This document shows positions 17,118 to 59,600 of a DNA stretch of 64,000 bases, piece by piece. The position numbers and the translations under genes were made by a program. Under the pieces are notes generated by a model. That model saw nothing but the letters and a program-made list of their open reading frames with translations. It was not told where the DNA came from and did no database searches. Source of the DNA: Convolutriloba macropyga (Eukaryota); assembly GCF_964194025.1 (NCBI RefSeq), contig NC_134471.1, forward strand, positions 64,480,001-64,544,000, in the 5' to 3' direction. Within the stretch, counting starts at the first letter, position 1, and each line of letters begins with the position of its first letter.

Positions 17118-17269
17118 GCCAATCAATCTCAAACTTATCAAATATATAGTTTATTTCGCTCTAGTTCCCCGCCCATTAGTGGTAGAATAGAAAAAAACGT
17201 CAATTAAGAGAAAGCCCCTCCCCTAAAAGCCTATTTGTTGTGGTAAACTTATTAAATAGTCTCCAAGTG

Positions 17270-35400: not shown

Positions 35401-35989
35401 AATTGATTTAATTTCAAACGAAAGATAAAATAGTGAAATAAGAGGTTCTCGGAATATTGTGTATCGGTAGAAACCAAAATTTCTGAAATTGTGTTTTCCA
35501 ATTTGTTTTCAAGATTGTTGAAGTTAGAGCTTTGAAGTTCTTAATGGCTTTTTATCGTTTCGGTGCCGTTTTGAAACAATGCAACGTTTTGATTTTCGAG
35601 TTAAAAGTGGATGGGTCACTATCCTACCAAGTGCCATATCAGAGCAAAAAACATCGTTTTGAGAAAGCACAGCAAATTTTATTTCTCTACGAAAGGGAAG
35701 GAGTTGACGGCTGTAGAGTTTTTAGTAGTCTGATTGGCTTTGATAATGCAGAGAGGAAACTTCTAGAAAACTCAATAAAACAGCAGAAATTGTTTTTAAA
35801 AAGCTGGCCGATCATGCCAATGTTTCAGTTCAAAATGTTTATAAATCGTTCACTTCATCGGTTCATCATAAATTTAATTTCCTAGCTCGTACAACACCTA
35901 ATGTTGAAGACCTGAAAAAATAATGTGACAATTCAGTCGACGGTGAGTTTTACCTAATCTAATAAAGGATCCCGCCCGAAAAACCGGAA

Positions 35990-36780
35990 TACTTTTTCGT
36001 TGCCTCAACAGGGAGGTTGGCCTCAACGTCCTTAAACATTAAGCCCGTTTTAGGGAACATAATCCATCAGTTCAACTGTCATCTCCTTTTTCCATATCTC
36101 AGCCCGAAGACCAACTAATCAAACAACAAATCATACTTGAAACATAAAAGGAGGAAGAGCTGAATATCAATTCGAAAAAGATGAGAATTAAAAGGAATTG
36201 AAAAAGAACGAGATTCGCTCACTTCAGTTAGTTAGTGAAAAGGGAGCACCCAGTTGGTTGAACGCTGTGACATTGAAGCGACATCAGTTTGACCTAACGA
36301 ATAGCGGGCTTCGTGATGGCATTGAATTTCGCTGTGGTTGGAATCAAGTAAGAATGCCATCACTATCCGCATGTAATGAAAACTTCAATATCGCACAGGC
36401 TCTCAACTGGGATTCCTTTCCAATTTTTTTAGTCAATTGTGTCATGATGCCGAAGTGAAACCAAATTTTCTGCCGTTGCAAGGGGAAGCCTTTGCTCTTT
36501 AATCAATGACAGCTGATGATGATGCAAGACTAATGCCAACGAAAATTGGTAACCGATGAGAAAAAACAATTTTTGATGTGGAAACTACCAACAATTATTA
36601 ACAAAGAATAATTGATTTTAGGAAAGCAATTTTTTTCCAACTGTCTTCGCATGCATATGCACAGCTGGCCAATCAGCGTCAAAAACGCCGAAACAACTGC
36701 CATCAAAGCTCTCTGCGCTGAACAGGAGCTGAGGTTGAATAAGGGAAGATGCTAGTTGGACTCACCTACTCTCGCCAATA
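35990..36780 (+). mobile_element. CRE-like element C-terminal remnant (zinc knuckle / restriction-like endonuclease region); paralogue at ~54070-54830
   Basis: GG.GL, SEKGAPSWLNA, LRDGI..R.GW, EP...PLQGE.F, DDDARL, KANFCPLVF..GSGPSASKTLKQLASKL. Confidence 0.75.
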
Positions 36781-37289
36781 GCTGTTTGTTTTCTTATGCT
36801 CTCTGCATTTTGATTTGCTGTTCTTCAGCTGATGTTTGTACTCACTTTCTTGAGAGATTCAAACAAATCGAAAAGTTTTATGAAGAAGTAGGGCTGGGAG
36901 GGCCCCGGACCAGCCAATGTTCACCCAGTGTTGGACATTGGCCTTCCTTAACTAAGATATTCTTTTTTTATTGGTGAATTAATTGAACGTTTTTGCAATA
37001 AAATGCCTAGTCAGGAGTTAAAAACTTGTTAAGTTAAATTTTTACAAATATGCGTACATACGGTAAAATGTTTTGATTACCTATTTACAGTTTCAGTTTT
37101 TCTAAAACTCCAACAATTTGTCATATTGAAGTTTGTTTTAATGTTACAAAGACTTTGAAACGTTTCAGATGAGTTTTTGTTCTTGTGAGTTTTCAACGGG
37201 CAATTTTTGCTTGCTTTTGTGGTCGATTTAAATTTGGTCACGTTCTGATTCAAATTTATTTGGCACAAAATGCATTTTGTTATTATTAA

Positions 37290-39300
37290 TTGAATTATAA
37301 TTCCTGGCTCTTGTACATGTCTCACGTATTCATTTGTCATTTGTGTCTACTAATATGTAGAGCTTCTGTGTTGAGAATTGTTTTGGTAACCTGGCATTGA
37401 TCTAATATCTCACAATTAGGGGCTGCTCGAGACCCACAGCATTCTTTTACACGTTGCTCCATCAGTGAATCAACTCTTTGATGCTCCAAATTTCTCTTAA
37501 TCAGATATCAACTTTTTTGGCTGACACAAGTTGAGTTGCATCCACAATAACTGTGTTCGTAAACAACATGAAGTTTTAGACTGCTATCAAAACTTGATTT
37601 CAGGGACGTTAGACATATTGGTAGTTATCGCGTGGCAAAGATGGTTCTCATTTCGCACGTTTTTTTTAAATGCCGCTCCAATTGCAGGCTGATGTTACTC
37701 CGGTACTGCAAGAAAAAAATAGTTCAACATCTTTTGCTCATGGTTGGTGTCTCCACTCTTTAAACTTCTCGCCGCCACTCTTCAGCTGAGTTTTACTTAA
37801 AACCTCTTGTAAGCATCAATTCCAATGTTCAGGGTAATGATTTTTGAGCCCTATAATTTTTTTCCATAAAAACTTTTTCCATGAGAACTTTGCGTGCGCT
37901 TCTGAAAAAAAAGTTGAACAGCTCGTTCTACGATATTTTTCTTTTGTTGGATAGTTGCACAGCTGCGCAATTTCAAGAAAACCCCGTATCGGTTGGTTTC
38001 GTGTACCACTCGCCGTTAATCATTTTACAGCTATTTACATTATTGATAAATGTCTAAAAATGCTAAATTGTGTTTTTTCTCCTGTCCCATCAAATGTGAA
38101 TTTCAATTTCTCGTCAGGATTGTTGACTTTTCCGAGCAATTTTTCTGGTTCACCACTTAAAGTAGAATTTATATTGGCTGTATATCTTTTGAATAATTGT
38201 CTTTCAGTCACCAGTTCACTAGCTTTTTTCTTGTTTTTCAAGAAATTAGAGCAATACCACAGCATGTCTTTCATTTTGGCGTGAACTTACTGATCAACAA
38301 AAATCTGGTCTTTTGCATGGAATCCACTCTCGCATTTTTCACATTCGAATCAATTTCTTCTATAAGTAAGTTTACGTTTGCATTGAGGGCTTACCTGAAG
38401 ATCTTTTTAAAAGAGTTTAGTGGCAATATGTTTTGTTGATTTCATCTGATTTTTGATTAAAAATCCTGCTATTTCCTTTTTCCCGCGTCTCTAAATTTTG
38501 TCGTATGTTCCGAAATTTCCATTTTTCAGTTTTTCTTAGAGCATGTTCCAAACAACACAGTGAAAGAGTGGCGTCATTTTGCCCAAGTTTTACCTGAATT
38601 ACGGACAAAAAAATCAGTAATTAGCAAATTGGACTCGTTTGCACTTCCCCAAGCTCTTGTCTGACGGTAGCGTTTACCCAACTTCGATTTACCTTTTCGC
38701 TTTTTGAAAAACCACGTAAGTTAATTCGTTATCGCCAAATGATACCCAGCGTCTTCAATTCCTGTGCCCTTTCTTGATGAAATTCACCGTGTTGCTTCAA
38801 ACACCAGTTATCACGCTGTTCGCGTCTGTTTTGTTACCTAAATTACCGGAATACTTGTTTTCAGCAAGCTTGCCACAATATCTAAGACTCGTTTTGCTGC
38901 AAGCACTCCAAAGGTTGTCCGGGTCACAATGATTGAAATCTTTGGATCTGTGTTCTCTGATTGCATTGTTAATTGTATCGTGTCACGGTACTAGATCTGT
39001 CCGATTTCCAAGGTTTCTGCTATTTTCTATCTAAAATCTGTCATTTTTCAGGATATTTCTTGAACTCCTGTTGAGAAACAGGCCGGCAAATGAAGCGACC
39101 GTTCTTTGTCCTTGTATATCACATTGTGCAATGCCTGAGAAAAAGATGACGCCTGGTGCATGGTTGCTCTGAAAATCTGTTATTTTGAAATAGTATCCTC
39201 AATATAACCCTGCTGATAAGGCAACAGTTTCACTCGTGACCTGTTTGTATAGCTAAAACGGGTCAAAAATGGATATAAAATTGTGGAATTGCTCCAAACT
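37290..39300 (-). mobile_element. Decayed Penelope-like element (RT + GIY-YIG endonuclease), copy 1
   Basis: LFKRYTANI (degenerate RYVDD), VNNPDEKLKFT, downstream VVYEHSYCGCNST GIY-YIG-type motif. Confidence 0.75.
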
Positions 39301-40069
39301 TTTGGCAACATCTTGCATCATAAGCAGTTAGAAACTTGTTGAGTTAAAATTTTAGAAATATGCATACATACATTAAAGTGTGTTGATAATCTATTTTCAT
39401 TTTCTCATTTTCCTCAAATTCCGAAAGGTCTTCAGAAGTTAGTTAAAATGGTGACAACTGTTTTAAAACTGCTAAAAGGAGTCTGTTTCTTTATGATTTT
39501 TCAATGGAGGATTTCGATTTTGTGATCGATTTAACTTTGCATACCTGCTAATTCGTTCATACGTACAAAGATAGAATTATTGTTTTTATGCGGGACACTG
39601 AAAAATTGTAATTAAAAAACTGTACGATTTTAAAAAGTGGGATTCCGAGCTACTCTCGTTTTTCTAGGATTGTAACAAAAATTGCTCTTTGAAACTATAA
39701 GATATCTGGCGCATCAGTTAGCAAATTGATGATTTAAACCTGTCTGATCATTCCTGTTGACTAACATGGACAATTCATCTTGCTAATTGATTCCTATCAT
39801 TCCCTTGGTTGATTATAAATTAGCTTACTTTAATTTTCGCGAAAAAGAAAACTTGGACTAAGTAGTTCTAACCCAAAGTTTCACAATAACTGAACAAATT
39901 TACCTCAAATTTATTCCGAAATTGCAGAATCTTTAAACTTTGAATTCTCAAAACTAGGGCAACTGTGTGGGAAGAAAAAAGAAGAAACAGCGTGTTTTGA
40001 TGCTGACGACTCTTTATTTAATTTTTGGCGGCCAATATCAGAAAAAGATTGTTTTTAGAAAAAAGTATA

Positions 40070-40512
40070 TGTAATGTACCTACATAAACATTTGACATTT
40101 ATAATGCTATACGATTTTAACTTCTATCAAACTAGATTGATGTAAACTTGTAGTTAAATACCAAACATACACCTTTTTGATTTGAATAACGAAAGTGCTT
40201 AAACTTATAACTATTTAATGCCGTATTCATTCCATTATATTTAAATGTTATGTTAATTAAACTAAAGCAATAACGTTGATTATGTAAATTGTTGTTATTA
40301 TAAATTTCTTATATGTCAATGCCAATAATAATTGAAATATCTATTTCAAACTAGAGAGAGGAGATAAACATATTGAAAGCAGTCGGTTCTTTTAAATAGA
40401 TCAAGAAAATAAAACTGTCCGAACACGCTCCAAAATTCTTTAAACACCCACTCTGGTCTAAAAAAAAGATAGACTTGGCAAAATAAATTAGTAAGAGAGA
40501 ACATATATTACA
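40070..40512 (+). repeat. Gypsy 5' LTR (443 bp)
   Basis: TGTAAT...ATTACA terminal inverted repeat; about 40 substitutions and two 2-bp indels versus the 3' LTR (~91% identity, hand count). Confidence 0.96.
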
Positions 40513-40529
40513 TGCTGACAGGAGTGCTG
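40513..40529 (+). promoter_or_regulatory. Degenerate primer-binding site, probably tRNA-Leu
   Basis: TGCTGACAGGAGTG directly after the LTR; two mismatches to TGGTGTCAGGAGTG, the complement of a tRNA-Leu(CAG) 3' end. Confidence 0.6.
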
Positions 40530-40880
40530 ACAGTTTAAATATTCTCTAACTCTACTAAAGTGGAACTAAACTATTTGAAGTGCTGGAAACTAGATCTAGA
40601 CTATCTTCAGCGCTGAAGTTGCATCTGAAAGCATCAACAACAGAGTCAAAGAACAGAGACATCTCAATTTTGTAAGTCAAAAACTCAAACTCAAATAAAA
40701 GGCGCTTAATTTTATTTTACTGGCCAATTTCATGCTCTCCTCAATAATGAACCATTAGCTATACTCTTCGCTAATAAGTTACCCTTCCTAAATTCGCTTA
40801 CACAATAGTTGAAATCTATTCTCATCGCATATCACATGTGCTGTGCAGTAAATTAATACGTAAATTAAAACGAGCGATAA

Positions 40881-41955
40881 ATGGCCGCAAACGCATAGGT
40901 AATGATCAAGCCGTACAGCAAAACGGAAAATGAAAATTTCGGCGAATTTGAGCAGTTGTTTTGAGGAATGGTCGGAGTCGCCGATGTTGCAGCAGCACAG
41001 CAGCCAAATTTCCTACAACTCCATCTATGTGAAGCAGCCCTGCGTTTCTTTCAAACGTTACCCGCGGCAACAAGAGCGGACGTCGATCTTTGCTTAACTG
41101 CGCTTCGAGAACATTTTTGCAATGTCCAACTACAAGAAATCCACATTTTAAAACTCGAACAGCAGCGTTTTGATATAAAGAAGGATACTCCAGAAAATTT
41201 TTTAGTAACACTGCAGTCAAGAGCGCAACGGTCTTACCCGACGCCAAATTTGCCCGAAGTTGCACCTCTAAATTTGGCGGCAGCAGGAGCAGATGCAGGA
41301 CTTGAAGCAGCGCAACGAACGAGATTCGACAGAGAAATTGCAGCGCGAGACGAGCGATTACAACCAGCTAGAGTTTTCAGGACCGCACAAATAAAACGTT
41401 TTTTTATATGAGCTAAGCCCGGGTGGCTCAGGTCGAAAGTGATGGAACAACCAGCTGCAGCGACAGTAAACGACTTATGTACCGTTGCCCGACAAAAAAT
41501 GTCCATCAGAAAAATGTGCAGGACTGTAGATTACCCTGAAGATGGCCTGAACGCTATAAATAATACGGTATCTGACAACTTGATAAACGCACTTAGAAAA
41601 CTATCAGCAAATCAGGAAGCAATGGAAATACGACTACATAATATGGACGAGCGATTGAGAGAAGACAACAAAAAACAACAATCTAGCCAATAACAACAAA
41701 ATAATTCCAGTCATATCAGACACAAACAACACAACAGCCATATCAAACACAAAATCATACAAAGCACAACAACAACAACAACAAGGTCCAGTACAGGGCG
41801 AACCGAACAAGCTTTGTTTCCCAGTCACATAATCCACAAAAGTCCTCTGTTATATTTGTGGGTACCCAAAACACAAAGCAAATCAGTGTGCCATGAGAAA
41901 TACCAAAACCTCAAGAAGAAACGTATTTCCTTTCCAACACCAGCCTAAAAAGTAA
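40881..41955 (+). pseudogene. gag: Gypsy gag (stops and frameshifts)
   Basis: ATG 40881; FLQLHL..AALRFFQTL, L..HF, FLV.LQ..A...YP, Gln/Asn-rich tract, zinc knuckle CYICGYPKHKANQC (~41848-41889). Confidence 0.85.
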
Positions 41956-41989
41956 TTAAGCCACCCAGATCTAATGAACACCGCAAATC

Positions 41990-44900
41990 ATCGTCATTTT
42001 CAGAAAAACCAAAATACGAAGCGGAAAAGAATGTTCAACCAACCCTTCAATTATATATTATTAGCCAAAGATTAGCCTCAACTCTATCTTTCCTTAAAAT
42101 ATCAATTGACTCGAACTTAACAAGACGAGCCCCAATAGACACCGGCGCCTGCGCCAACGCCATTAACAAGCATTTATACAAAGAAATTCAAGCAGAAAAA
42201 TCCATGTGTATTCAAAAAATTGACAGACCAAGTTTAACAAAAGTTAAGATGGCATCGGAACAAGAAGTTGAATAATTGCAGAAATTTTACTGAATTTCCG
42301 AGTAGCACATCAAAGTTTTACTGAAAAATTTCTGGTGTTTCCTACAGTGAATCCACTCATTCTAGGCAATGATTTCTTCAAAAAACATGATACAGTAATC
42401 AAACCAGGTAAAAACCTAACCAATATAGCGGACTTAACAATACAAATTAGCGAAATAAAAACATTAAATGAACCAAGACGAAAAGTGAGGACAAAAAGAG
42501 TTGCAGCGTTCACAACAAAGAAAAACGCAATCCAACCAAACACTCAGATGATCATTGAAACCAAGTTAAAAACCACAGCAAATTTTGAAAAATGAAATGG
42601 AATAGTAATACTGAACGAGTATATAGAACAAAAACTAGACTTAGCAATAACTTCATCTTTAAGTACGATTCTGGATGACAATATCCTTTATTTCGCATTG
42701 ATTATTATAACTGATCAATCAATAACGTTACCTAAAGGAACCGAATTTGCTAAATTCTCATTCCTAACTCTGGAACAAGCCGAAACACTCCAACAAATCG
42801 ATCCAGAACTGATTGCCTTAGCGGAAAACCAAAGTGATGACATCGTCGAGATTAATCAACTTGTTCAAGACTTCCCATTTCACGGAAAGAGTCAACCACA
42901 GCGACAGCAACCAGAATATAGTAAACTATGGTTCCCAACAACGGAATCATGTTCAGACCCTGAAAACCTTCCACCACTTCAACGAGAAATTTTTGACCAA
43001 AAACTACGATTCCAAAATATAGAATGGCAGGATGCAAGAAAAAAAATACCACATACAAGAATTTCTTTAGCGTTTTCCATGGCAAAATTCAAAATTCTAA
43101 ATCTCGAAGAACGAAAAATTATAGAGGAACTTTTGCTTGAATTCCACGATATCTTCGCCAAACACCGTTTTGATGTCGGCTACAATACCGAACTTAAAAT
43201 ATAATTAACACCAGAACGCTCAAAACCACTCTATGTACAGGGACCACCAACACCAGTCCAACTTCGAGACGAAAACATATCGAACTTGCTCTTACGCATT
43301 ACTATGGACTGATTACCACACTTTCTCAATCGAAATATAGCAGCCGGTTTTTCGCCCATCGTAAACAATCAGGGAAACTGAGACTACTGGTCGATCTCCG
43401 AGGCGTGAATCATCTCCTGAAAAATGAATATATTAATGCTAACTTTCCAATTTCAATAAATGCTAACTTTCCAATTTCCGATAAAACTGATGCTACCAAC
43501 CACTTTGCAGGAAAAACTCTTTTCACAAAACTGGATTGCTCACAGGCCTACCACTGTGTTCAGATGGCGGATGACTTATCAACACAGCTTCTAGCATTCA
43601 ACTTTTCATCTCGTACATACGCGTACAATTGTTTGGCGCAAGGCCTTAGCAAATCGGTCACTGGATTCAGTGATTTCAATCGACACTATTTGGACCCATG
43701 CCTTGCAGCGGACATCTGCACGCAATTTATGGATGATATTGGATGCGGAGTTGAAACCTTTCAACAACTAGATACAACCCTACGGAAAAATTTTGAATGT
43801 ATTAGGAGACCAGGCTTGAAATTTTTGCCCGAGAATAGCGAAATAGCTACAAAATTCTTACAATTTTGGGCAACGTCCTCACTCCTAATGGCATATCACC
43901 TCAATCGGAAAAAATATAAAAATTTCTAGATAACTTAACTATGCCAAAAACAATTTAACAAGTTAAACGATTGATCGTATTTCTAAAGTTCTTCAGAAAT
44001 TATATTCCGAATCTCGCAGAAAACTTATGCCCTTTTACAAACTCCTACGTAAGGACTCACAAATCGAACCAGATGACATGCACTACAAAAATTGGGAAAT
44101 TTTGAAAAACGACCTTTTGGATGCAACAAAAATAATTCTGAGGCTTCCCACACCTGGAGTTCAATACGTCGTTTTGTGTGTCGCTATTTATTATTCAGCG
44201 GGATTTGTACTAATGATTGAAGATTATATCATTGATCAGAACAACAAAAAGAAAAAAGTATATGCCCCAGTGTCTTTCGGATCGCAGCTCTTCACTACTG
44301 CCCAACTTAAATTTTCAATTAATTATAAGAAATTCTTAGCCTTATATTACGCCCTCGATCAATTTGCACACTATCTCTGGGAAGCAACAAAACCAAATTT
44401 AATTCTAACAGACAATAGAAGCCTCACTCAATTTTTCATATCAAAGGTTATACCACCATCACTTTGGAACTTTTGGGATTGTGTTCTTTCATTCAACGTG
44501 ATTATTGCCCATATACCAGGAAAAGCAAATTACGCCGCAGACTTTTTGTCTCGCGTCCAAACGGACAAAACCGCTGGCTTTTACTTGAAAATTACTGAAA
44601 ATATTCCAAGAAAATATTGAAAGAAGATGAAGCGGACACGACCGCTCACACCTGACGTGAAAGCAAATTTCATTAGCGAAATGATGGAATCTTTTGAAAA
44701 AACCAAAGATCCACAACTAACAGAAAACCTGAAGAACCTTGGACTTTACGAAACATATCTGAAAATGCAGAAACAATCAGAAAACGAAATCACCGGTTTC
44801 CTCAAACTAGTGAGACCAACAGTAAATTCTGTCCTCTATGAAAATCCGTTAGATTTCTGAGAGGTATAAATGCAAAATGGATCCGATGAAACTCAAAACA

Positions 44901-46150
44901 GAACAACAAAAAGATGAGGATATACAAACTGCTATCCAGTGGAAGCGACAAGGAACCAAAGTTGACTTGAAATACGAACCAATTTCACGGAAAAATTTCA
45001 CAAACAATTGCGACTATTAATAGTTGAAGATGAAATACTTTATAGACTTTTCTATGATGATACAGGAAAGGTACAGTTAGTTCAGACAAAATTGCCCTCC
45101 AAAAAATCTCTGGAAGGAAGCATTATACAGAATACACAATTCAAAAACAGCTGGACACCTAGGAATTGACCGCACATTACAAGAATTCCGCCGCCGCTTC
45201 TACTTTCCTAACTTTACCGAACATTTTCTTGATCTTATCTAAAATTGCCTGACATGCCTTCAGATGAAAAACGTCAAAAGGAAACAGTTCAAATCCTCAC
45301 TGCAGCCGTTATCATCACTACAATCATTCCCCGGAGACTTATTTCGACCTTGTGGGAACTTTCAACTCACCAGTGTACAAATACGTGTTAAGCGGCATTG
45401 ATGTTTTCACGAAGTATCTTTTTGCAGTCTCCCTTACGAATGGAAGCGCCGTTACTGTAGCTTGTGGGCTCGTGAAGATTTTTTTCCAACACAGCTATTT
45501 GCCCGAAACTATTTTGATGGATCTAGGAACCACATTTACCTCTGATCTCGTGCACGAATTAGCCCAATTCCTCAAATTAAGCTAAAACACGCGTCACTAA
45601 AACACCCACAAACCATTGGCACAGTAGAGCAATTGTATAAACCTCTTAAAAAGATAATAAAACTTAATAGTAAAGATCAGTGGAACGACTGGCATAATTA
45701 CGTCCCATTGGCAGTTTTCATACATATTACATCATACCACTCTTCCATTGGATGTTGCCCAAGACTTCTGTTTCACGGACGGGAACCTACAAAACCCTTG
45801 GACCTTCGCTTCTTCAGAAAAGGAACGGCAGTAATAGAAGCGAATTCAGGCGATGTTATTGGACTTCAGGACGCAATGTTGAAAATATTTTCCGAAAACA
45901 AAGAACAACTTCTTGACGCATATCACCGCTATCGAAGCTATTACGATAAGAAAACTGGAGCAAAACCACTCAAGAATCATTCTTACTGTTTTTTCCTAAG
46001 TTCTCAACTAACAAGTCAGCAACAAATCATCAAAAAATCAGCTCAAACCTGGATTCCATTGTAAAAGGTTCAAATTATGCAGTAAGGAAAACAGGCACAA
46101 ACTTCACACAATGCGTCCACCGGATCAGACTAAGAGCCGTTAAACCCCCT
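41990..46150 (+). pseudogene. pol: Gypsy pol: protease, RT, RNase H, integrase (disrupted)
   Basis: IDTGAC (~42135), ILGNDF, KLRLLVDLR, KLDCSQAYH, AQGL, QFMDDI, RNase H (..YSAGFVL, LTDNRSL, HIPGKANYAADFLSR), IN HHCC (IHNSKTAGHLG..CLTC), IDVFTKY, DLGTTF. Confidence 0.95.
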
Positions 46151-46959
46151 CCGGATATTGTTGACATTGAAACTATTGGCCCAAACAAATTTCAACCGGA
46201 CCCAACTCGAAGAAACGATAGAAGTGAACCACAACTTTTTGACGACCATCTTCATAAATTACTGGAAAATAGACTCAGTTTATATACAAAAACCCTTAAA
46301 ACCTGCAAATAAATCACATGTCAGCATCACTCTACCAGTCGCGGGAGTACCCGGACCCTTTGCAGCCCCCGCACCAGAACCAGTGCCAGTGCCGCCTGAA
46401 AATTCATCCGGAATTTCCAATAATTCAACACCACAGATTTCTCCTGAGAATAGCAACCACAATTCTCCAGATCAAAGCGACGACGAAAAACAACTTCACA
46501 AAGAAAATCCGATACCAACGCAACTAGAACCCCTTCAACCAGATGTTGATACCAGTGTCGATATAGCCGATTTTACCCAAAATACTCCAAAACGAACTAG
46601 AATACCTAGGAAAGTACAATTTAATTCAAGAGTTGAAAGACGACATTACAAGCCGCGTAATGAATCTCCTGTTATTCATCGATCACGCCCAGCTGATGTC
46701 AACTTTACGCCTACACCAAACCAACAGAATGCAACATTAACAACAGAGAAATAAAAAAACGGCAAGCAATTCTCGATTCTTTTTTGAGAACACGATCTTC
46801 TAAAATACCAACTCGTGACACTAAACTGGACCAGGTGCAATCAAGTATCAGAAAACACCAGAATAGGAGCCCGGAAGGACCGCCAAACCAGAAACGTCAC
46901 ATAATAGAAAAAGAGAAGCCAAAAATCACGACATAAATTTAATCTATCACCAAAGTCAG

Positions 46960-47418
46960 GCAAATTTTTGTTTCTGGCAACATTTTTGCAAAATATCCGT
47001 CCTGTTGTACATTGCATATCAGCCGATGCTGCCATGAAAGCAGGATTAGCAGCTGCAATAGCCAATTGTTACGCTTTACTACGAAAAGTTGTGCAAAACC
47101 GTTCAAAAATCCGGACTGGTTCTGTTATTGTCTACATTGACGCGAATGAAAATCGCATTATCTTCAATTTAGTAACTCATATAAAAATATCATAATATAG
47201 CAAATCTCAATACTATGAAAAGCCCACTTATTACGCGCTATCAAAGGCACTTCATGGAATAAAAAAACCTCCTACTTCAATACGGTATAAACAACATTCT
47301 TTTGCCACAAATTGAATGTGAACTCGATAAATTGAAACAAGACACCGTCTATCGAATGCTACAAAGTGTATTTTCCGATGCTCCACTTACTGTTCACCAC
47401 AAATTTCATAATCAGTAA
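46960..47418 (+). pseudogene. TARG1/OARD1 (Poa1p-like) macrodomain at the end of the Gypsy pol region
   Basis: VVHCISADAAMKAGLAAAI...IFNLVT[24-nt insert]KSQYYEKPTYYALSKALHGIK/NLLLQYGINNILLPQIECELDKLKQDTVYRMLQSVF; parallels TARG1 motifs HCISED..MGAGIA, YLITK..KPTY..L..SL, MPRIGCGLD.L.W. Confidence 0.88.
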
Positions 47419-49970
47419 TGTCAAGACACCGATACTGTTACTCAACCAGACAAAAGAAATAGCGCTCCATCGACAAACTTGAGAAAATTTTGACAAAAAC
47501 GCAATAAATCGAAAATCATGCAAATTCGGAATTTTCACCGAAATTATTATAACTCGAGTTATATTCAACCCAAAACCGCGATAATAGGTCCAACCGATCA
47601 CCCATTATGCCAATGGATTTCATTGGCCGATTAGTAAATCTGAGGCAATATTTTTTGAGAAACTGAGAAGTTAAGAAAAATGCAAAATTTGGCTAATTCT
47701 CAAAATTGACAAAATATCAATAGGAAAATTACTATATTAAATTCGTCAAATCAAGCCCAAAATTGATCCAGGATCATAACTTCCATACCTATAATGGATG
47801 ACCAAAGCAACTTGGGCCAAATCAAATACTTTGGGAGATATCGGATTTTCAACTTTGGAAAAATCAGCCTCAAAAACTATCCGATCCGGGCTAAAATGTT
47901 GATAGCTACGTCAAAAATCACCCACCTATCAGCTATAGCAATGCCATAGCTAAATCTTGGATGAAAACGGCAGCTTAAAATGTGTTTATCTTTGAGAAAA
48001 ATTGATATTTATGCCAGAAAAAAGAGCCCAAATCTACCTCTCGGCCCTGACAAATATTCAAGTCTTCTAGTCAAAAAAAGTAACTTCAGACCGCATTTTA
48101 ACAGTCAGACCCTTTGGGATGTTAAACACTAAGACCGTGGTAGCAAAAAAGGCGTCAAAGACCATTTTTTCGAACTCTACAGACCTTAATCGATGGTGCA
48201 ACTTAAGCCCTCAAAAAAGGGCCCAAAATCATTGGAAAATAGCATATCTCGCAAAATAATTATGTCACGGATGCCAAAATTGTCAGGGCATCATCAATTA
48301 GTCTGTAGATGAGAACCAAAATTCAAATTTTGCGCTCTGACGCCTATAAGTTCCCTTAATGTGAAAACATTTTTTTTCACACTTTTTCAAAAAAATGTGA
48401 AAAAAATCAAAAATGACTTAACTCGCCCGCTACTTCGAAACTGGCCCTTTTTTTATTGCGGACCTTGGTGCACCTCAAGACCATTGTGCCCAATTACTTT
48501 CCAATCGCCCTACACTCGTTTTTCATCAGTTTCAGTGCAAGTACTGAGCAGTAACGTCCACTGCTCAGCAAGGCAAAGGGTCAACGCTGCATGGTGCCAC
48601 CCACTGCATGGTGCCCATAAATACAAAGTGTCGCCAAGACACTGGTTTACATGCATGGCCTTGCCTGATAACTTTGGCACTTGAGCAATCATCAACTTTG
48701 GGCATCTGGCAGTTCTTTTAGCATTTATTGCAACCTCACCAGGAGGAAGCACGACACAAATTTTCCTGCCCTGGCCGTGTAACGTGATAAAAGAGTCACA
48801 GGCATCCTCCCAATCATTATGCTACCTTACAAACAGGGGCCTTGGCTCAAAATAGGGGACCCAAAGGAGTAATCAGATAAAAATAAGCCCTCTGCGAGCT
48901 TATATTTCAAGTCAGATGTATACTTTTCTTTCAATTTACCATTAAAATACCCACTCCGACCAAAATAACCAGCTTTTTTCTGTTCCTCCGGCCAATTGAT
49001 CTTCTCCCAAACAGTGGAATACTTGGCGGCGTTGTAGATTGATCTCTAAAAGGAACATTGCTAGAATACAACTGCTGTATAATGTGACAAAACAACTCGC
49101 TGTGGATATCATCAACTTACGTCCAAACTGTAACCTTTATAAGCAACAACTTTCTCCTTTACCAAGAAAGGCACACCCTTCACAACAGACTCTAACTTCC
49201 CACTGTTAACATGCTTTAAATTACCTAGAATAACTTTTTCAATTCAAACATTTGATCACTCATTTTGACCTGGAAAAGAACTATTTTGTAACACCAAGCA
49301 AAAATTAAAACACATATAAACAGCTCATGCATAAACAGTTCACATATAATGTAACAATGCTCTAACACAACTGAAGGCGGTTCAGATGGTTAAATTGAAT
49401 CAAACACGGGCACTCACACAACACAGTACAAAAAGGATTAATAATACATTATTACAGCGTCAAAAAACTAAAGCACTCAACACTTAAAACACACTTAAAT
49501 AAACGTTTCTAACAAGTAAATGCCTACACTCTCGTTCTTGTTCTACTTCTAACTAAATTCTCCACACCTCTCTGACTAGCCACTACCGATTAAGTAATAA
49601 CTTCACCGCCATGAAGCGGGCAAGGAAGAAAATAACGAAAATGGCAAATGCCACAAACGAATGCAGGTCACAATTTGACTCTTCTGGCAGTCTTTCTGCC
49701 TGCTCAGTACCACGCAGCCGTGTTCTAGAAAAGGTCCAAGTACCCGTTGTGGGAAAAAAGGTCCCAATTTCACAACATTGAAACACATGTTGAAACGAAA
49801 GTTTCCGAAAGTCATGTTGAAACACATTTTGATCTGAAGTGCTCAAACTCACTCAATCTATTGAGCTTTACATTGATCAGACACATAAATCAGATTAAAA
49901 CCATTGACTCCAAATTCCTCTTGTAAATATATCTAAACCTAGCAAAGTTGAATTGTCTTTTCAGTTTTAG

Positions 49971-52264
49971 GAAGTACACTCAAGCAAAAACAGCTGCAAC
50001 TTCGATAACGCACTCACTAACAATTATCAAAATTTACAAGCCAGTGGCAAACGTCATACTCATCGCCATCTTTTTACAAATCTGCAATGCTTTCAATCAA
50101 ACAGAAAATTCAATTAGAATAATGTTATCTAAATTAGCCGAAATGTGGAAAGCTCCTTCTCTGTTCTGTCCATTAAACTTCTCCTCTAATTTCAACGGCT
50201 CTGCTACACCATTCAATATCAATTAGATGCTTGACAAACTAGTTAATGAAACTGATTCCGCTAAAATTGAAATCAAAAATCTACAACACTATTCAATATC
50301 AATTAGATGCTTAACAAACTAGTTAATGAAACTGATTCCGCTAAAATTGAAATTAAAAATCTACAACACTACAACAAAAAATGTCAACACTTTTGACAGA
50401 AAAGGACTGGGAGCTGCAGTTCTTGCCGGAATTGGCCTTTTCGGTACTGGAGTCTTAGTTGGAAATATGGAAGAATGTGGATTAATGTGAAAATTTGGCG
50501 GCTGCCAGAAGCAAGGACAGAAAAATTCAGAAAACATCAACCGCCTCCACCAATACACATCGATGTTAACGAATTATGTTGTGGAACTTGAAGATGAGAC
50601 AAAGAGGAAATTTTCATGATTTCCAACGAGCTGAGTGAAATAAAAAAACTCCAAGAAGAAATGGTACGGATCCAAACAGAAAATTGGAAAATAATCGAAG
50701 CCCAATTCGAAGTTTTTGAACACAATTTTCATATCTTACAAGACTGCACCCAAATATTGTTCTCAAACCAGCAATTAAACTTTAATTTTGACTCTGTGGC
50801 TTCTCTTCTTGCGCTACTTTTTGCCGATGTTAAAAATTATCGTTCAGCACTTTATGCCTATAAGATAAAACTAATTAATTCGGCATCGATTCTTTTAAAC
50901 AGAAGTTTACCAATGTCACTGGTCCCAAGAGAAACGTTGATTGCAATTTTGGGATCTGTTCATAGAAGCCAGAGGACAGCAAGAGACCGTCTTACGCTGG
51001 CGTTACATATGACAGATCTTCTATCTTATTATGATGCAAAATTAGTTAGAGAGGTTGCGACAAGTGAAGAAGGTATATTGCTCACTCTAGCAATTCCAAT
51101 GTCATCAAGACAGACAGCATTCAATATATATGAAGCGCATCGTATACCCATGCCCCAAGCTGACTCATCTGAAGCATTGATGTGGGTTACTGAAGGCCCC
51201 TACCTTGCAATCTCAGAAGATTCTGTGGAAAGTGCTATTCTTTCTCAAGAAAAATTTGACAATCGTCTTGGCGCAGCTCAATACAAAATATGTCATGAAA
51301 GTCTTGCAACACAATTAGGATCATCATCTTGCCTTGGCGCCCTTTACTTTCATAATATTCAGCCCTAGCCGTTTGTGACACCGAGAGATACTTATTACCA
51401 AGTCCGGAAAAGGCCACGAACTTGGGATATGGAATTTGGCTCAATACTTCAGCCAGTTAATCGTTTATTCTTCGAGAATACAATATAGATAACGACAAAA
51501 TTCCCGGGAAAAAAAGAAAACCCTGTATGTAAATCTGCTTAATTACACTTGAATGTGGCTGCCAGCTAATCAGTAAAAATGTTAAGATAAGACCGGATCT
51601 CCAGAGTTGTGACAAAATACCAGCGATGTGCATTGGAGTTAAACTCCCAGACCCTCTTGAATATTTGATAGCCAAACTGCTGTCAATAGAAGATCTTCCT
51701 TTCTTTGAATCCAAAACTGATGCAAACACCGCCCTTCTAAGAGAAGTTAGAACACAATTGATTTATAGTCCACAAATCACTCAAATGAAACATCTTAATA
51801 CACTAGGAAAATCAATCGCTCATCGAATGAAATTACTGAAGTCAACACCCGCCCATCAACTCGAGGAATACGTACCGCTCAAATTATCTCTAATGCTAAC
51901 AGTAATAGTGTTTATTGGAAATCTTTTCTTGCATATTCTTGCTATGTATCTCCATCACCGTTTTGCCATATTTAAACGCCTCACACCTTCCTTCCTGAAT
52001 TTTTACAACAACAAAGTTCCGTTAAAACCTGTGATGACAGTCGAAAATGAATATGCAAGCCATCTCAAAAGACAACACATAAATAACATGACTGTCATTA
52101 CAAAACAACAATTACCTCAACTACAACCTGCTCTCAGTCGAAAACCTTCAAAAATGTCTATGTATAACCAACCAACAACTACGTTCAGTCGAAGACCATC
52201 AAATACATCTATCAATACACACAACGATGATACGGTTACAATCAACGACCAAAGTGAATTCTAG
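49971..52264 (+). pseudogene. env: env-like class I fusion glycoprotein (baculovirus F / paramyxovirus F-type), disrupted
   Basis: Signal peptide VANVILIAIFLQICNA, N-glycosylation sequons, RK|GLGAAVLAGIGLFGTGVLVG fusion-peptide-like segment (50404-50463), heptad repeats, Cys-rich beta region, TM helix LSLMLTVIVFIGNLFLHILAMYL, S/T-rich cytoplasmic tail; located between pol and the 3' LTR. Confidence 0.85.
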
Positions 52265-52389
52265 ACAATTGCAGATTAACATTTTCAGGGCGGATTAAAA
52301 ACTATATAAACTTTAAATCACAAATCACTCATCCTATGATATGATTTATTTATTAAGTTTTTCAAAAAAATTTCAAAAAAATTGGGTAG

Positions 52390-52832
52390 TGTAATGTACC
52401 TACATAAAAATGTGACCTCTATAATGCTATACGATTTTAACCTCTATTAAAATAGATTGATGTAACCTTGTAGTTAAAAACCAAACATACGCCTTTATGA
52501 TTTGAATTACGAAAGTGCTTAAACTTATAACTATTTAATGCCGCATTCATTCCAACATATTTAATCTTTATGTTAATTAAACTAGAGCAATAACTTTGAT
52601 TATGTAAATGGTCGTTATTATAAATTTCTTATAAGTCAATGCCAATAATAAATGAAATAGCTATATTAAACTAGAGAGAGAGGAGAAATACATATTGAAA
52701 GCAGCCGATTCTTTTAAATTGATCAAGAAAATGAAACTGTCCGAACAAGCTCCGAAGTTCTAAAAACACCCACTTTGGTCTAAAAAAAATAGACGTGGCA
52801 AAATAAATTAGTAAGAGAGAACATATATTACA
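52390..52832 (+). repeat. Gypsy 3' LTR (443 bp)
   Basis: Matches the 5' LTR; preceded by purine-rich AAAAAAATTGGGTAG (PPT-like). Confidence 0.96.
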
Positions 52833-55139
52833 GTATATCATCAGAGAAAGAAATCCCAACAAGAACACTGGTCCCTTTAAAGTAACCGCCTGAAACACTT
52901 GACGTTTATTGCAAAGCAAATTCTTAATAACTGTTTTTTCCTGAAAAGAGCTGAAATAACATCAATCTATGAAGAAGATGGCATCATGGACCCTGTAAAC
53001 TATCATCTATCTCGATAATTAAATCGTTTTCCAAAATGTTACAAAAAAAATTGCACATTTAAATCATAAATTATACTGTGAGTAAAAAATACAGTCGCCG
53101 CCTCATTTCGGATATCAATATACTGTGTCAGCACAAGAAGCTATTCTATTTTGCTTTGCTTCAGTCCAACAAAAAATTGATAATAGTAATTTTGTTGATG
53201 CCGTTGTGATCAATTTATCTAAAACTTTTGACTCACTACCATACTAATACCTATTGAGAAAATTACAATTTCTAAACATTTCAACTTCTGCATTGCATGT
53301 CATACGATGTTTTCCTTTGAATCACATACAACAGGTTGGAGTTTTTTGAGTTGTGTCAAATTGGATTGAATTAAAACAAGCGGTTCCACTGGTATTTGTT
53401 TCAATAGGTTAAAATTGAATGCCAAAAAACTGAGTTTATTACAATCTCGCACAAAAATAATAACAGGCTCAACAATTTTTAAATTGATTTAAATTCAAAC
53501 GAAAAATAAAACAGTGAAATAAGAGGTTCTCGGAATATTGTTTAACGGTAGAAACAAAAGTTCCTGAAATTTCGTTTTCCAAATCGTTTTCTTGATTGTG
53601 GAAATTAGAGCTTTGAAGTTCTTAAAGGTTTTTTTATCGTTTCGGTGACGTTTTGAAACAGTGCAACGTTTTGATTCTCGAGTTAAAAGAGGATGGGTTA
53701 CTATCCTACCAAGTGCCATATCAGAGCAAAGAAAATCGTTTTGAAAAAGCACAGCAAATTTTATTTTTCTTCGAAGTGGAAAGAGTTGACGGCTGTAGAT
53801 TTTTTAGTAGTTTGGTTGGTTTTGATAATGCAGAAAAGAAATTTATAGAAAGCTCAATAAAACTGCAGAAATTGTTTCTAAAAAGCTGGCCGTTCATGCC
53901 AATGTTTCAATTCAAAATGTTTAAAAATCGTTTACTTCAAAGTTTCATCATAGGTTTACCTTCTTAGCTCTAACACCTAATGTTGAATACCTGATAAAAG
54001 AATGTGAGAAATTGATCGACGGTGAGTTTTGCCTAATCTAATACAAGATCCCGCCCAAAAAAACTGGAATACTTATTCGTTGCCAAAAAGGGAGGTTGGC
54101 CTCAACGTCCTTAAACATTAAGCCCGTTTTAGGGAACATGATCAATCAGTTCAACTGTCATCTCCTTTTTCCATATCTCAGCCCTAAACTAATCATACAA
54201 CAAATCATACTTCAAACAAAAAAGGAGAATGAGCTGAAAATTAATTCGAAAAAGATGAGAATTAAAAGGAATTGAATAAGAACGAGAATCGCTCACTTGA
54301 GTTAGTTAGTGAAAAGGGAGCACCCAGTTGGTTGAATGCTGTGACATCAGTCTGACCTAAGGAATAGCGGGCTTCGTGATGGCATTGCCCTTCGCTGTGG
54401 TTGGAACCAAGTAAAAATGCCATCACTATCTGCATGCAATGAAAACGTCAATATCGCACATTTTCTAAACTGGGATTCCTTTCCATTTTTTAGTCATTTG
54501 TGTCATGATGCCGAGATTGAACCAAATCCTCAGCCCTTGCAAGGGGAATCCTTTGCTCTTTAATCAACGACAGCTGATGATGATGCAAGATTAAGGCCAA
54601 CGGAATTTGGGAACCGATGAGCAAAAAACAGATTTTGATTTGGAAACTACCAACAAATATGAACAAGGAATAATTGATTTTAAGAAAGCAAATTTTTGTC
54701 CACTTGTCTTCGCTTGCATATGCGGATCTGGCCCATCAGCGTCAAAAACGCTGAAACAACTGGCATCAAAGCTCTCTGCGCTGAACGGGAGCTGATGTTG
54801 AAGAAGGGAAGATGCTAGCTGGACTCACCTACTCTCGCCACTAGTTTTCTAATGCTGTCTGCGTTCTGTTTTACTTTTCTTCAGCTGATAATTTAAAATT
54901 TTTACGGTAACTTACATTTGGTAACGTGTCTCTACATACGATAAAAATAAGCGTACATACGGCAACATGTTTTGATATCTATTTATAATTTCAGTTTTTC
55001 TAAAATTCCAACAATTTGTCACATTGAAGTTTGTTTTAATGCTACAAAATTGTGCAAGCCGCAAGTGCTGATTGCAAGTGCTGCAAGTGCTGCAAGTGCT
55101 GATTCGAATTTATTTGGCCAACATGCATTTTTTTATTAA

Positions 55140-57150
55140 TAATTGAATGATAATTCCTGGCTCCTGTACCTGACTCACGTATTCAGTTGTCATTTGTGTC
55201 TACTAATATGTAGAGATTCTGTGGTTCAAAAGTGTTTTGGTAACCTGGCACTGATCTAATATCTCACCATTAAGGGCTGCTCAAGCCCCACAGTTGGTCC
55301 AATTAATGTTGGTCCATCAGTGCATCAACTTTTCGATGCTCCGAATTTCTCTGATTCAGATATTGACAATTTTGGCCAACACAGGTGGAGTTGCATCCAC
55401 AATAACTGTGTTCGTAAACAACATGAAGTTTCAGACTGCTATGAAAACTTGATTTCAGGGACGGTAGGCATATTGGTAGCTTTCGCGTGGCAAAGATGGT
55501 TCCCATTTCGCACGTTTTTTCAATATCCGCTCAAATTACAGGCTGATGCTACTTCGGTACTGCCAGAAAAAAAAATAGTTCAACATCTTTCGCTCATGGT
55601 TGGGGTCTCCATTGTTGTATTTTCTCGCCGCCATTCTTCAGTTGAGGTTTACTTAAAACATTTTGTAAAGAATCAATGACAATTTTAGATGTCCCACGTT
55701 CAAGGTAATGATTTTTTTGCCCTATTTTTTTTGTTTTCTATGAGAACTTTGTGTGCGCTTCAACAAATGCGTTGATCAGCTCCTTCTACGATATTTTTTT
55801 TTGTTGGATAGGTGCACAGCTACGGAATTTCAAGAAAATCCCGTATCGGTAGGTTTCGTGTACCACTCGTAGTTAATCATTTTACAGCTATTTACATTAT
55901 TGATAATGTCTAAAAATGCAAAATTGTGTTTTTTTCTCCTGTCCCCTCAAATGTGAATTTCATTTTCTTGGAGGGTTGTTGAATTTTCTGAGCAATTTGT
56001 CTGGTTCATCATTTACAGTAGAAATTAAATTGTCTGTACATCTTTTGAATAATTGTCTTTTAGTCACCGGTTCACTAGCTATTCTCCTGTTTTTCATGCA
56101 ATTAGAGCAATACCACAGCATGTCTTTCATTTTGGCGTGAACTTACCGGTCAACAAAATCTGGTTTTTTGCATGGAAAACATTCTCGCATTTTCCACATT
56201 CGAATCATTTTCTTCTAAAAGTACATTTACGTTTGCATTGAGTACCGACCTGACGATCTTTTTTAAAGAGTTTAGTGGCAATATGTTTTGTTGATTTTAT
56301 CTGATGTTTGAATATAAATCCTGCTATTTCTTTTTTCCCGCGTCTCTAAAGTTTTTGTATGTTCCGACAATTCCATTTTTCAGTTTTTCGTTGAACATGT
56401 TCCAAACAACACAGTGAGAGAGTGGCGTCGTTTTGCCCAAGTTTCACCTGAATTACGGACAAAAAAATTAGTAATTATCAAATTGGACTCGTTTGCACTT
56501 CCCTATGCTCTTGCCTGACGGTAGCGTTTACCCAACTTCGATTTACGCTTTCGCTTTTTCAAAAACGACGTAAGCTAATTCGTTACCGCCAGATGATACC
56601 CAGCGTCTTCAATTCCTGTGCCGTTTCTTAATGAAATTCACCGTGTTGCTTCAAACACCAGTTATCACACTGTTCGCGTCTGGAAATATTGTGTTTTTTT
56701 ACCTAAATTACTAGAATACCTGTTTTCAGTACGCTTTTCACAATATCTGTGACTCGTTTTGCTGCAGGCACTCCACAAGGTTGTCCGGGTCACAATGATT
56801 GAAATCTTTGGATCTGTGTTCTCTGATTGCATTGTTAATTGTATCGTGTCACGGTACTAGATCTGTCCGATTTCCAAGGTTTCTGCTATTTTCTATCTAA
56901 AATCTGTCATTTTTCAGGATATTTCTTGAACTCCTGTTGAGAAACAGGCCGGCAAATGAAGCGACAGTTCTTTGTCTTGTATATCACGTTGTGCAATGCC
57001 AGAGAAAAAGATGATGCCGCTAATATATGCTTGGTTGCTCTGAAAATCTGTTATTTTGAAAAAATATCCTAAATATAACCCTGCTGATAAGGTAACAGTT
57101 TCACTTGTTGCCTGTTTGTATAGCTAAAACGGGTCGAAAACTGATATAAA
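55140..57150 (-). mobile_element. Decayed Penelope-like element, copy 2
   Basis: LKLHVVYEHSYCGCNSTCVGQNCQYLNQRNSEH matches GIY-YIG consensus VVY..C..C..YVGQT.R.L..R..EH; FKRCTDN RT motif; collinear with copy 1. Confidence 0.78.
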
Positions 57151-57499
57151 TTTGTGGAATTGCTCGAATGTTTTGGCAATATCTTGCATCATAAGCAGTT
57201 AGGAACTTGTTGAGTTAAAAATTTACAAATATGCATACATACACTAACGTGTCTTGATAATCTATTTCCATTTTCTCATTTTCCTCAATTTCCAAAAGGT
57301 CTTCAGAAGTGAGTTAAAATGTTGAAAGGTGTTTTTAAACTGCTAAAATGAGTCTTTTTCTTTATGATTTTTCAATTGAGGATTTCGATATTGTGATCGA
57401 TTTGACTTTGCGCACCTGCTAATTTGCTAATTCGTTCGTACGTTCTAGGATGGATTTATTGCTTTCATGCGGGACAATGGTAAAATTTTATTTGAAAAT

Positions 57500-59600
57500 C
57501 TGTACAAGTTTTAAAAGTGGGATTCCGAGCTACTCTCTGTTGTGTAAGATTGTAAAAAAATTTGCTCTTTGAAACTATGGGATTTCTGGCGCATCAGTTG
57601 GCACATTGATGTTTTTCTTGCACGCTGAAAATTTTTGAACATTTGTGGTAACATCAAGCGAAATCTGGGTACTGAAATTGAAACAAGATTTTTCAAAGTG
57701 TCGGAAAAATATAAACCAAATTTACCCGTTGCTCATATTATCTTTCAAAACGCATCTAGAAAGCGTTTGCAACTGATGTCTTTTGTTAATGACAGGGGAA
57801 AAGGCTATTGTGGGTATATCAGAAATATGATTGACAGCAGATGATAAAACTTCCTTATGGAATGTAGCTCCCAGTGCGATAGAAGTGCAATAAACTGTAA
57901 AAAGAGTGGGGTACTGCTTTTTGTGCCCTTGAAATTCCCTCCATAAGAACGTAAGGATTTAAACCTGTCTGATCATTCCTGTTGACTAACATGGACAATT
58001 CATCTTGCTAATTGATTCCTATCATTCCCTTGGTTGATTATAAATTAGCTTACTTTAATTTTCGCGAAAAAGAAAACTTGGACTCAGTAGTTCTAACCAA
58101 AAGTTTCACAATAACTGAACAAATTTACCTCAAATTTATTCCGAAATTGCAGAATCTTTAAACTTTGAATTCTCAAAACTAGGGCAGCTCTGTGGTAAGA
58201 AAAAAAGAAGAAACAGCCTGTTTTGATTCCGGCGAATCTTTATTTAATTTTTGGCGGCCAATATCGGAAAAAGATGTATTTAGAAAAAGGTGTATCATCA
58301 AAGAAACAAATCCCAACAAGCCCACTGGTCCCTGTAAAGTAACCGCTTGAACCACCTGACGTTTATTGCAAATCAATTTCTTAATAACTGTGTTTCACCT
58401 GAAAAGAGCAGACATAACATCAATCTATAAAAAAGATGACATCATGGACCATGTAAACTATCATCTATCTTCATAAATAAATTGTTTTCCACGATCTTAG
58501 AAAAAAACTTGCACAATTAAATCACAAGTTATACTGAAAGTAGAATTTATAGTCGCCGCTTCAGTTCGGATATCAACATATTGTAACAGCACAAGATGCT
58601 ATTCTTTTTTGTTTTGCATCAGTCCAACATAAAATTGATAATAGTAATATTGTTGATGCCGTTGTGATCGATTTATCTAAAACTTTTGACTCACTATCAT
58701 ACCAATTCCGATTGAGAAAATAACATTCTCTAAACATTTCAACTTCTGCATTACATGTCATAATGTTTTCTTGTGAATCGCATGCAACATGTTTGAGTTA
58801 TTTGAGTTGTGTCAAATTGGATTGAACTAAAGCAAGCGGTTCCACTGTTATTTGTTTCACTAGGTTGAAATTGAATGCGAAAAAACTAATTTTATTACAA
58901 TCTCGCACAAAAAAACAGGCTCAACAATTCTTAGACTGTAATTCTAGGGACAGCAATAGAAAAAATTTAAACCAATGTAAATGTTCAGGTGACAAAAAGA
59001 GACAATAAATATCAAAAACATGGCTGTTGGTACCAAAGCTATTGAAATTGAACAACATAGTTTCCCGTAACCGTGTTATTCTTTGCATTTCCACTCATTT
59101 GTCATTAGTCACTTACAGTAGTCTGATTTATGTCTCTTTCAAATGAGTTCAACTTAGTGCTTTTATGAGGAAACAGATGAAATGGGCTTTGAAGTGTGTA
59201 TTTTTTGTTCTTGTAACAAGTCGTCAAATGAATCATGAAAGCGTAGAAATGTAAATGGCATCAAGAACTAATTAAGTTGAAATCCTTAACGTACTATTTT
59301 CAAAACAATAGAATTATGGAAAGAGCTGTTCAACAACAGCTTAAAATACTTACTGCCAGCTATAGGAATAACATTCGCGCGAACCAAATAGTTTATGTAG
59401 GTAATCTTCCATCTGTTTAATCCTCTTCTAAATCATGCCTTAGTCAGGTATCGTTGAAGTGAAACTCACTCTCATTGCACCTGTAAGACACAAAATTGAT
59501 TGAAAAACATTTTTGATATCGGAGTAAAATCATTTGTTATCAAACAAGCTACCACGTGGCGTGACTTCCGTCTCAAATGACCTGTGAACAGCTATATTTA
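57500..59600 (+). mobile_element. Decayed, internally deleted CR1/L2-like LINE ORF2 (its paralogue is the Gypsy target site)
   Basis: DR..KKSGVLLFV (APE), D.VNYHL (NYRP), AVVIDLSKTFDSL, KQAVP, HSFVISHLQ. Confidence 0.7.

Follow-up and report, generated by a model that had tools for sequence, protein, structure and literature searches.

A decayed Ty3/gypsy provirus of Convolutriloba macropyga belongs to an env-bearing family with a predicted TARG1-type macrodomain on Pol and a predicted antisense JmjC gene

Results

Structure and state of the provirus

The stretch of DNA analysed here, called the window, comprises 64,000 nt of Convolutriloba macropyga contig NC_134471.1 (64,480,001-64,544,000, forward strand), and all positions are counted within it. 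A Ty3/gypsy provirus lies at 40070-52832 and carries broken gag, pol and env remnants on the plus strand, a predicted macrodomain of the TARG1/OARD1 type at the end of pol and, on the minus strand between pol and env, a predicted JmjC gene. This antisense gene is the most unusual part of the element. An earlier note made from the letters of this DNA had listed about 2.5 kb of unexplained sequence in the element and missed the gene, which runs from 49263 to 48438 in that spacer.

The provirus is bounded by long terminal repeats (LTRs) of 443 bp each with TG...CA ends (40070-40512 and 52390-52832), which were identical in 401 of 441 ungapped columns (90.9%; Kimura two-parameter distance 0.097). 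The target site duplication (TSD) GTATA was present on both flanks (40065-40069 and 52833-52837). The host repeat that the provirus interrupts occurs again in the window (58250-58335) with a single copy of the target (one mismatch), which confirms the insertion. The primer-binding site (PBS, 40513-40526) directly follows the 5' LTR, and 13 of its 14 bases were complementary to the 3' terminus of tRNA-Leu as encoded in the genome, with CCA added. This tRNA-Leu 3'-end pattern gave 163 matches genome-wide, and ARAGORN called a tRNA-Leu at 4 of the 4 loci examined. Long tandem arrays of tRNA-Leu-like sequences were also seen in the genome (G000:C11:45168120-45218905 and C1:80691761-80725836). The gag remnant (40881-41949) was 62% identical to that of an open relative, in which the C-terminus of Gag weakly matches zf-CCHC. 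The pol remnant (41949-46252) has many stops and frameshifts and holds protease (PR), reverse transcriptase (RT, 43276-43866), RNase H (RH, about 44066-44479) and integrase (IN, about 45087-45821); Pfam RVT_1, RT_RNaseH, Integrase_H2C2 and rve were matched in three different frames. The window and its open relatives together gave the Pol order PR-RT-RNase H-IN with gypsy-type Pfam domains. By its LTRs, TSD, tRNA PBS and Pol domain order the element belongs to Ty3/gypsy. The earlier description of a complete element stands for LTRs, TSD, PBS, gag, pol and env, but not for a clean polypurine tract, as the position before the 3' LTR (52370-52389) has purines at 13 of 20 positions and the tract is weak in relatives too. 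The gag, pol and env genes of the window copy align to open relatives only across several frames with stops, and the copy is therefore dead. The provirus is thus a real but dead element copy, in keeping with the earlier statement that its LTRs are about 91% identical and the copy is inactive.

Relatives in the genome

The genome searched for relatives comprised 1.18 Gb. The env fragment of the window had at least 149 genome matches (148 of 1831 candidates scored) and the macrodomain fragment at least 150 (150 of 460 candidates scored). The window's own LTR had 21 matches, and the five other places examined were deleted or decayed. Six sister elements with both LTRs were examined and all six had LTR identities of 98.7-100% and long gag, pol and env frames, bearing out the earlier suggestion that younger intact relatives may exist. 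The provirus is a dead member of a large family with some recently inserted members. A quick RT tree of 49 rows, built from copies of this one genome and leaving out L070 and loci without a single RT stretch of 140 aa, placed the window within a 26-row clade with 99% support in the Shimodaira-Hasegawa-like approximate likelihood ratio test (SH-aLRT). The macrodomain, JmjC and env regions had no Pfam match on the broken frames of the window and were identified through open relatives. Weak Pfam matches on window frames to HTH_19, MetOD2 and ODP were dismissed as compositional or helix-level.

A TARG1-type macrodomain at the end of Pol

Open relatives encode the macrodomain in the reading frame that also holds RT, RNase H and IN, and there it forms the last part of Pol, about 250 low-complexity residues past integrase. 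The corresponding regions of the window are a Pro/Ser/Thr-rich linker (46253-46985, in frame with Pol in open relatives) and the frameshifted macrodomain itself (46986-47397). The earlier note had named a macrodomain and a separate env; both are present and env is separate, but the macrodomain is the C-terminus of Pol and not a gene of its own. The macrodomain of one open relative matched human TARG1 over 140 residues at E 6e-19, with the next-best other macrodomains at 9e-6. Used alone, the window fragment matched only TARG1 among PDB chains, weakly (E about 0.3), and the family profile recovered it at E 3.5e-22. Residues were counted in 24 single-stretch copies, of which 20 were stop-free. 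Among the stop-free copies the equivalent of Lys84 was present in 19 of 20 and that of Asp125 in 15 of 20, positions that we take to be the catalytic residues in TARG1 numbering. Nonsynonymous differences per site (pN) were below synonymous ones (pS) in 4 of 4 macrodomain pairs, with dN/dS of 0.24-0.42 where computable. Full-length similarity, TARG1 as best match and the mostly kept catalytic positions support assignment of the Pol-terminal domain to the TARG1/OARD1 type, as had been proposed from the window alone. The profile detects the domain even in the most distant lineage of the clade, so that the clade probably inherited it from its common ancestor. Outside this genome, long Pol-like proteins bearing a TARG1-like macrodomain were searched for and 0 were found among 155 candidates; the search was word-limited and gives no evidence of absence.

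An antisense JmjC gene between pol and env

The minus strand at 48438-49045 was 47% identical over 101 residues to an open JmjC relative (E 4e-28) and represents the main exon, frameshifted and with stops, of a JmjC gene of type A. The type-A query had 97 genome matches (119 candidates), and a second, longer type, B, had at least 107 (106 of 334 candidates scored). The two types were homologous by profile comparison (93%, E 2e-7). All 9 further type-A copies that were scanned matched JmjC in Pfam, 3 of them above the curated cut-off, and type A had an Atlas score of 0.94. Against the PDB, the type-A profile found PHF8, PHF2 and KDM7A at the top (E 3e-7 to 2e-6), with JMJD6/KDM2A next at 0.04. 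A protein-library search with type A gave 121 matches; six of the seven long proteins scanned had PHD, JmjC and JHD, and small JmjC proteins were also among the matches (E 1e-15 to 1e-6). A near-length search gave 2 close matches. In the host genome the best match was another small JmjC gene (L096, independent E-value, iE, 3e-5), and no KDM7/KDM2 gene was among 6 host JmjC matches, a lower bound from an exon-wise search.

The metal-binding residues were close to invariant in both types, with H/D/H in 19, 19 and 18 of 19 type-A copies and H/E/H in 20, 20 and 20 of 20 type-B copies, although lineages share just 26-53% identity. The T-x-x-H-x-D, G-x-K and late His motifs were conserved in type A, and a structure model had a strand-rich core (predicted local distance difference test, pLDDT, 69.7; predicted template modelling score, pTM, 0.68). 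All 8 type-A pairs and all 6 type-B pairs had pN below pS, with computable ratios of 0.07, 0.27 and 0.38. These features indicate that the spacer gene encodes a protein of the JmjC 2-oxoglutarate/Fe(II) oxygenase type, with an H-x-D/E...H triad in a cupin-type domain; type B is included by profile and motif only.

An early ATG is missing from most type-A open reading frames (ORFs). All 22 copies compared have a YAG acceptor where the homologous JmjC region starts, a count weakened by 3 offsets that were placed by eye, and 20 of the 22 have a donor-like site 55-130 nt upstream of it. An exon with an ATG and alignable protein precedes the acceptor in many copies. The window retains this layout on the minus strand, with a broken first coding exon (49121-49263) whose ATG at 49263 comes right after a second acceptor-like site, and a predicted 75-nt GT-AG intron (49046-49120) with a GTAAGT donor at 49120 and a pyrimidine tract and TAG acceptor at 49046. 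The gene thus bears splice signals and is predicted to be a spliced antisense gene. Because it is antisense, genomic RNA would stay unspliced at this intron. Four contig sets from one study, of unknown kind, contained no joint at the predicted intron and are evidence neither way.

Arrangement and exchange of the spacer gene

We examined 60 loci around JmjC matches, spread over the score range of the 204 matches, for features within 10 kb. Pol, macrodomain and env were found together in 40 of the 60, all on the strand opposite JmjC. The others had pol and macrodomain (10), pol only (2), macrodomain and env (2), env (1), macrodomain (1) or none (4). L050, one of the 4 with none on the opposite strand, has a same-strand match. 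In 3 of 3 env-less loci with flanks examined env lay just beyond the fetched span. Because the loci were chosen by JmjC, 40 of 60 is not a frequency. The recurrent co-occurrence identifies macrodomain and env as family traits and not as nested insertions, which the earlier note had named as what would refute its reading.

JmjC types A and B were interleaved on the RT tree, with 3 and 4 changes. L025 and L027 were 93% identical in pol and 94% in env with a JmjC identity of 64%; L071 and L055 were 90% identical in pol and 86% in env with unalignable JmjC. L036 and L043 were collinear at 85%, and in L057 and L056 env was divergent too. The pol-env slot therefore appears, by these comparisons, to behave as an exchangeable accessory cassette swapped between lineages. 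Type-B JmjC was also found in multicopy repeats that lack RT (L053:1-4203, L085:8411-9226, L067:5798-10000, L084, L089). These repeats contain a SET-domain ORF (Pfam E 6e-12 and 2e-10) and an ORF with tyrosine-recombinase-like motifs recognised by eye, with no Pfam match. They may be DNA transposons of a Crypton-like kind that carry both a methyltransferase and a demethylase-like gene; a term search of a Crypton paper found nothing relevant in the text covered (PMC3212892).

Further features were observed in particular lineages or loci. The most distant lineage has a second antisense JmjC-like ORF without an evident metal triad (L061:733-1434, L062:459-1214, L076:8824-9540, L078:8788-9543), matched by the profile in L061 only (iE 0.024) and possibly a pseudo-JmjC. 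In the lineage without JmjC there is an antisense ORF of 127 aa with one hydrophobic helix and a polybasic tail (L010:4905-5285, also in L006), together with further antisense exon-like ORFs without a Pfam match. A suspected OTU gene in this lineage was not confirmed, as Pfam matched none of 4 antisense L010 ORFs. Tandem arrays of the JmjC part of the spacer, with units of about 1.06-1.15 kb, occur at L014:1-7500 and G000:C2:27097961-27109902.

The envelope gene

The env remnant of the window (50101-52261) is broken and its true 5' end lies somewhat upstream. It has a fusion-peptide-like stretch at about 50400-50460, a transmembrane (TM) segment at about 51890-51960 and an 80-bp tandem duplication at 50200-50359, and matched the family profile at E 1e-124. 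Env is a separate gene after pol that recurs across the family. In an open relative it spans 772 aa from stop to stop, with an N-terminal hydrophobic leader, a hydrophobic, Gly/Ala-rich peptide after an RKRR motif, and a TM segment. An R-x-K/R-R motif was present in 34 of 48 aligned homologs, with the hydrophobic peptide and TM. By Atlas language-model features, clusters of the paramyxovirus-type Fusion_gly ranked top (0.94, 205 of 256 features), with Baculo_F at 0.91. These features, the furin site and the fusion peptide make it likely that the predicted Env is of the F type. Speaking against this assignment, Pfam Baculo_F matched 3 of 48 members, at best at E 0.002 and under the cut-off, and the best PDB sequence matches were weak hits to HA2 (E 0.007). 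The proposal of an F-type env made in the earlier note thus holds by features and motifs, but has weak Pfam support. Matches to Tau131 and HA2 were dismissed as compositional or helix-level. At L081:1461-2030 an ORF past env on the same strand, inside or outside the element, matched MVB12/DUF2464, a subunit of ESCRT-I (endosomal sorting complex required for transport I), at E 1.4e-12.

Surroundings of the provirus

The provirus sits in an older repeat (37043-40070 and 52833-53481), of which an uninterrupted copy lies at 54942-58933. Tandem arrays in the window have units of 2-3 kb (25469-36833) and about 0.8 kb (60112-63827). A BEL/Pao element on the minus strand (18386-23865) has DUF1759, RVT_1, Peptidase_A17 and integrase and is flanked by a 328-bp direct repeat (17270-17590 and 24817-25143). 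Two further ORFs lie on the minus strand, one for a short-chain dehydrogenase (13544-14374, E 1e-37), the other of 645 aa and including a B-box zinc finger (15216-17150).

Discussion

The clade displays a recurrent architecture with conserved catalytic positions, purifying selection and cassette exchange. On balance we lean towards a reading in which the macrodomain and the antisense JmjC are both erasers that counter host defence in an env-bearing Ty3/gypsy clade, with a predicted F-type Env for cell entry. The element would use tRNA-Leu-primed reverse transcription followed by integration with a 5-bp TSD, as any Ty3/gypsy element. The macrodomain would be made with Pol, would therefore travel with integrase, and may free the integration complex or the cDNA of ADP-ribose. 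JmjC would have an mRNA of its own, antisense and spliced, and its intron would survive reverse transcription because genomic RNA is the opposite strand. The enzyme may remove repressive lysine methylation of the KDM7/PHF8 type and so keep the provirus expressed; substrates of KDM7/PHF8 are H3K9me1/2, H3K27me2 and H4K20me1. The pol-env slot would serve as an exchangeable accessory cassette, and the predicted Env would let particles enter other cells. A fuller version, which we put forward only tentatively from the sequence data, describes an infectious animal retroelement clade with a kit of two erasers. One would be a TARG1 tethered to integrase, which clears ADP-ribosylation made by the host; the other would be a KDM7-like demethylase, antisense and intron-bearing, which erases heterochromatin on the element itself. 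The slot of the demethylase would be traded among lineages and with SET-carrying DNA transposons.

To our knowledge few animal retrotransposons encode enzymes against host silencing. If the two-eraser reading is true, the clade would provide a first example in animals of a histone demethylase encoded by a retroelement. A TARG1-like domain kept by selection on integrase would suggest that ADP-ribosylation restricts retroelement integration, an element-borne KDM7-like enzyme would mean a direct attack on repressive chromatin, and an antisense gene with conserved splice signals would be a route for an LTR element to carry a spliced host-type gene through reverse transcription.

Several observations weigh against the two erasers as proposed. 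The macrodomain motif is degenerate in several lineages and in the window copy, with Asp missing in 5 of 20 stop-free copies. One young sister lineage (3 loci) is without JmjC, which is therefore dispensable. Most dS values of the JmjC pairs are saturated, and type-B JmjC by itself matches nothing in Pfam or the PDB and is linked by profile comparison (93%) and motif only. Cellular relatives carry a PHD reader and a JHD helical domain, and neither had a Pfam match in the scanned exon-2 JmjC ORFs, so that nucleosomes may not be the substrate. We accordingly liken the element JmjC to KDM7/PHF8/PHF2 only as an enzyme that may work like them, and do not place it among proteins defined by PHD and JHD.

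The macrodomain might instead be a reader, binding chromatin that is ADP-ribosylated, as at DNA breaks, and guiding or aiding integration like the chromodomain that follows integrase in chromoviruses. Its place C-terminal to integrase, where some errantiviruses carry chromodomains according to the main text of PMC13524379, and its retention in lineages that lost the catalytic Asp or the glycine motif agree with reading. We nevertheless regard this as unlikely, as both catalytic positions are kept in most copies (19/20 and 15/20) and the match is specific to TARG1, a hydrolase. For JmjC a comparably doubtful alternative is an active 2-oxoglutarate oxygenase that hydroxylates or demethylates a non-histone target (RNA, or a protein of the host's defence or of the element) and is no chromatin anti-silencer. 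The missing PHD and JHD, the identity of only about 25% to KDM7 proteins and the small host JmjC gene as best host match would fit such an enzyme, as would the RNA-demethylating AlkB described for orchid gypsy elements in the text covered of PMC9289625. Set against it are the KDM7/PHF8/PHF2 type as clear top match in both PDB and library searches and the chromatin context of type B, which adjoins SET-domain genes in the RT-less repeats. A third reading, in which the macrodomain and JmjC do nothing for the element, as neutral passengers or nested insertions, is very improbable. In its favour, one lineage lacks JmjC, others have exchanged it, and type B occurs in other repeats; yet position and orientation are fixed in 40 of 60 loci, the metal ligands are invariant at 26-53% identity, pN is below pS in all 18 pairs and the splice signals are conserved. 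These selection and position data appear to largely refute a passenger role, and our preference stays with two counter-defence erasers.

Parts of this architecture are already in print, namely F-env gypsy elements, macro ORFs in fish endogenous retroviruses (ERVs) and AlkB in orchid gypsy elements; the TARG1-integrase fusion and the JmjC cargo were not found in the literature searched. That search found no gypsy element with either feature and had Repbase, Dfam, subscription journals and preprint supplements, which may hold such families, outside its scope. The main text of the study of 'ancient errantiviruses' by Chary and Hayashi (PMC13524379) describes gypsy elements with F-type env as widespread in invertebrates. 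The F-env part of the complex family proposed in the earlier note is therefore less new than implied. That main text contains no macro, ADP-ribose or TARG1 term, and seven text supplements contain no JmjC or cupin term, and 'macro' was a species name at each of the 4 places inspected of 10. The searched text of PMC9289625 likewise contains no macrodomain or JmjC term.

As described in that main text, errantiviruses share with the present clade the LTR-gag-pol-env order, a PR-RT-RH-IN Pol, an Env (F-type there and predicted to be so here) that has a furin site and fusion peptide, young families of many copies and a tRNA PBS, and some carry chromodomains after integrase (PMC13524379). The present clade differs in the TARG1-like domain that closes Pol and in the antisense JmjC gene of its pol-env spacer. 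The macrodomain resembles human TARG1/OARD1 (C6orf130; PDB 2lgr, 4j5r) in its full-length match and mostly kept catalytic Lys and Asp, but is fused to a retroelement integrase through a long linker and is degenerate in some lineages. The KDM7 subfamily (PHF8, PHF2, KDM7A) gives the best PDB matches of the type-A profile and shares T-x-x-H-x-D, G-x-K and the late His, whereas the element JmjC is small and stand-alone, has no PHD or JHD seen, lies antisense in an LTR element and comes in two deeply diverged, exchangeable types. Fish epsilon-like ERVs, as described in a review (PMC4977317, citing Basta et al. 2009), carry macro-domain ORFs and are likewise env-bearing LTR retroelements with a captured macrodomain; by that description they are Retroviridae with additional ORFs, in contrast to a Ty3/gypsy element with a fusion to Pol. 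Orchid Gypsy elements carry an active AlkB N6-methyladenosine (m6A) demethylase ORF with a proposed counter-defence role, according to the text covered of PMC9289625, and are similar as a gypsy lineage with a fixed 2-oxoglutarate/Fe(II) oxygenase as extra ORF; theirs is AlkB in the plant Ogre/Tat lineage, whereas here it is JmjC. Boty of Botrytis, as cited in PMC8365987, has an additional antisense gene, brtn, inside a gypsy element as in the present clade. The gene of the present clade differs from brtn in coding for a recognisable enzyme, in its conserved splice signals and in its exchange between lineages.

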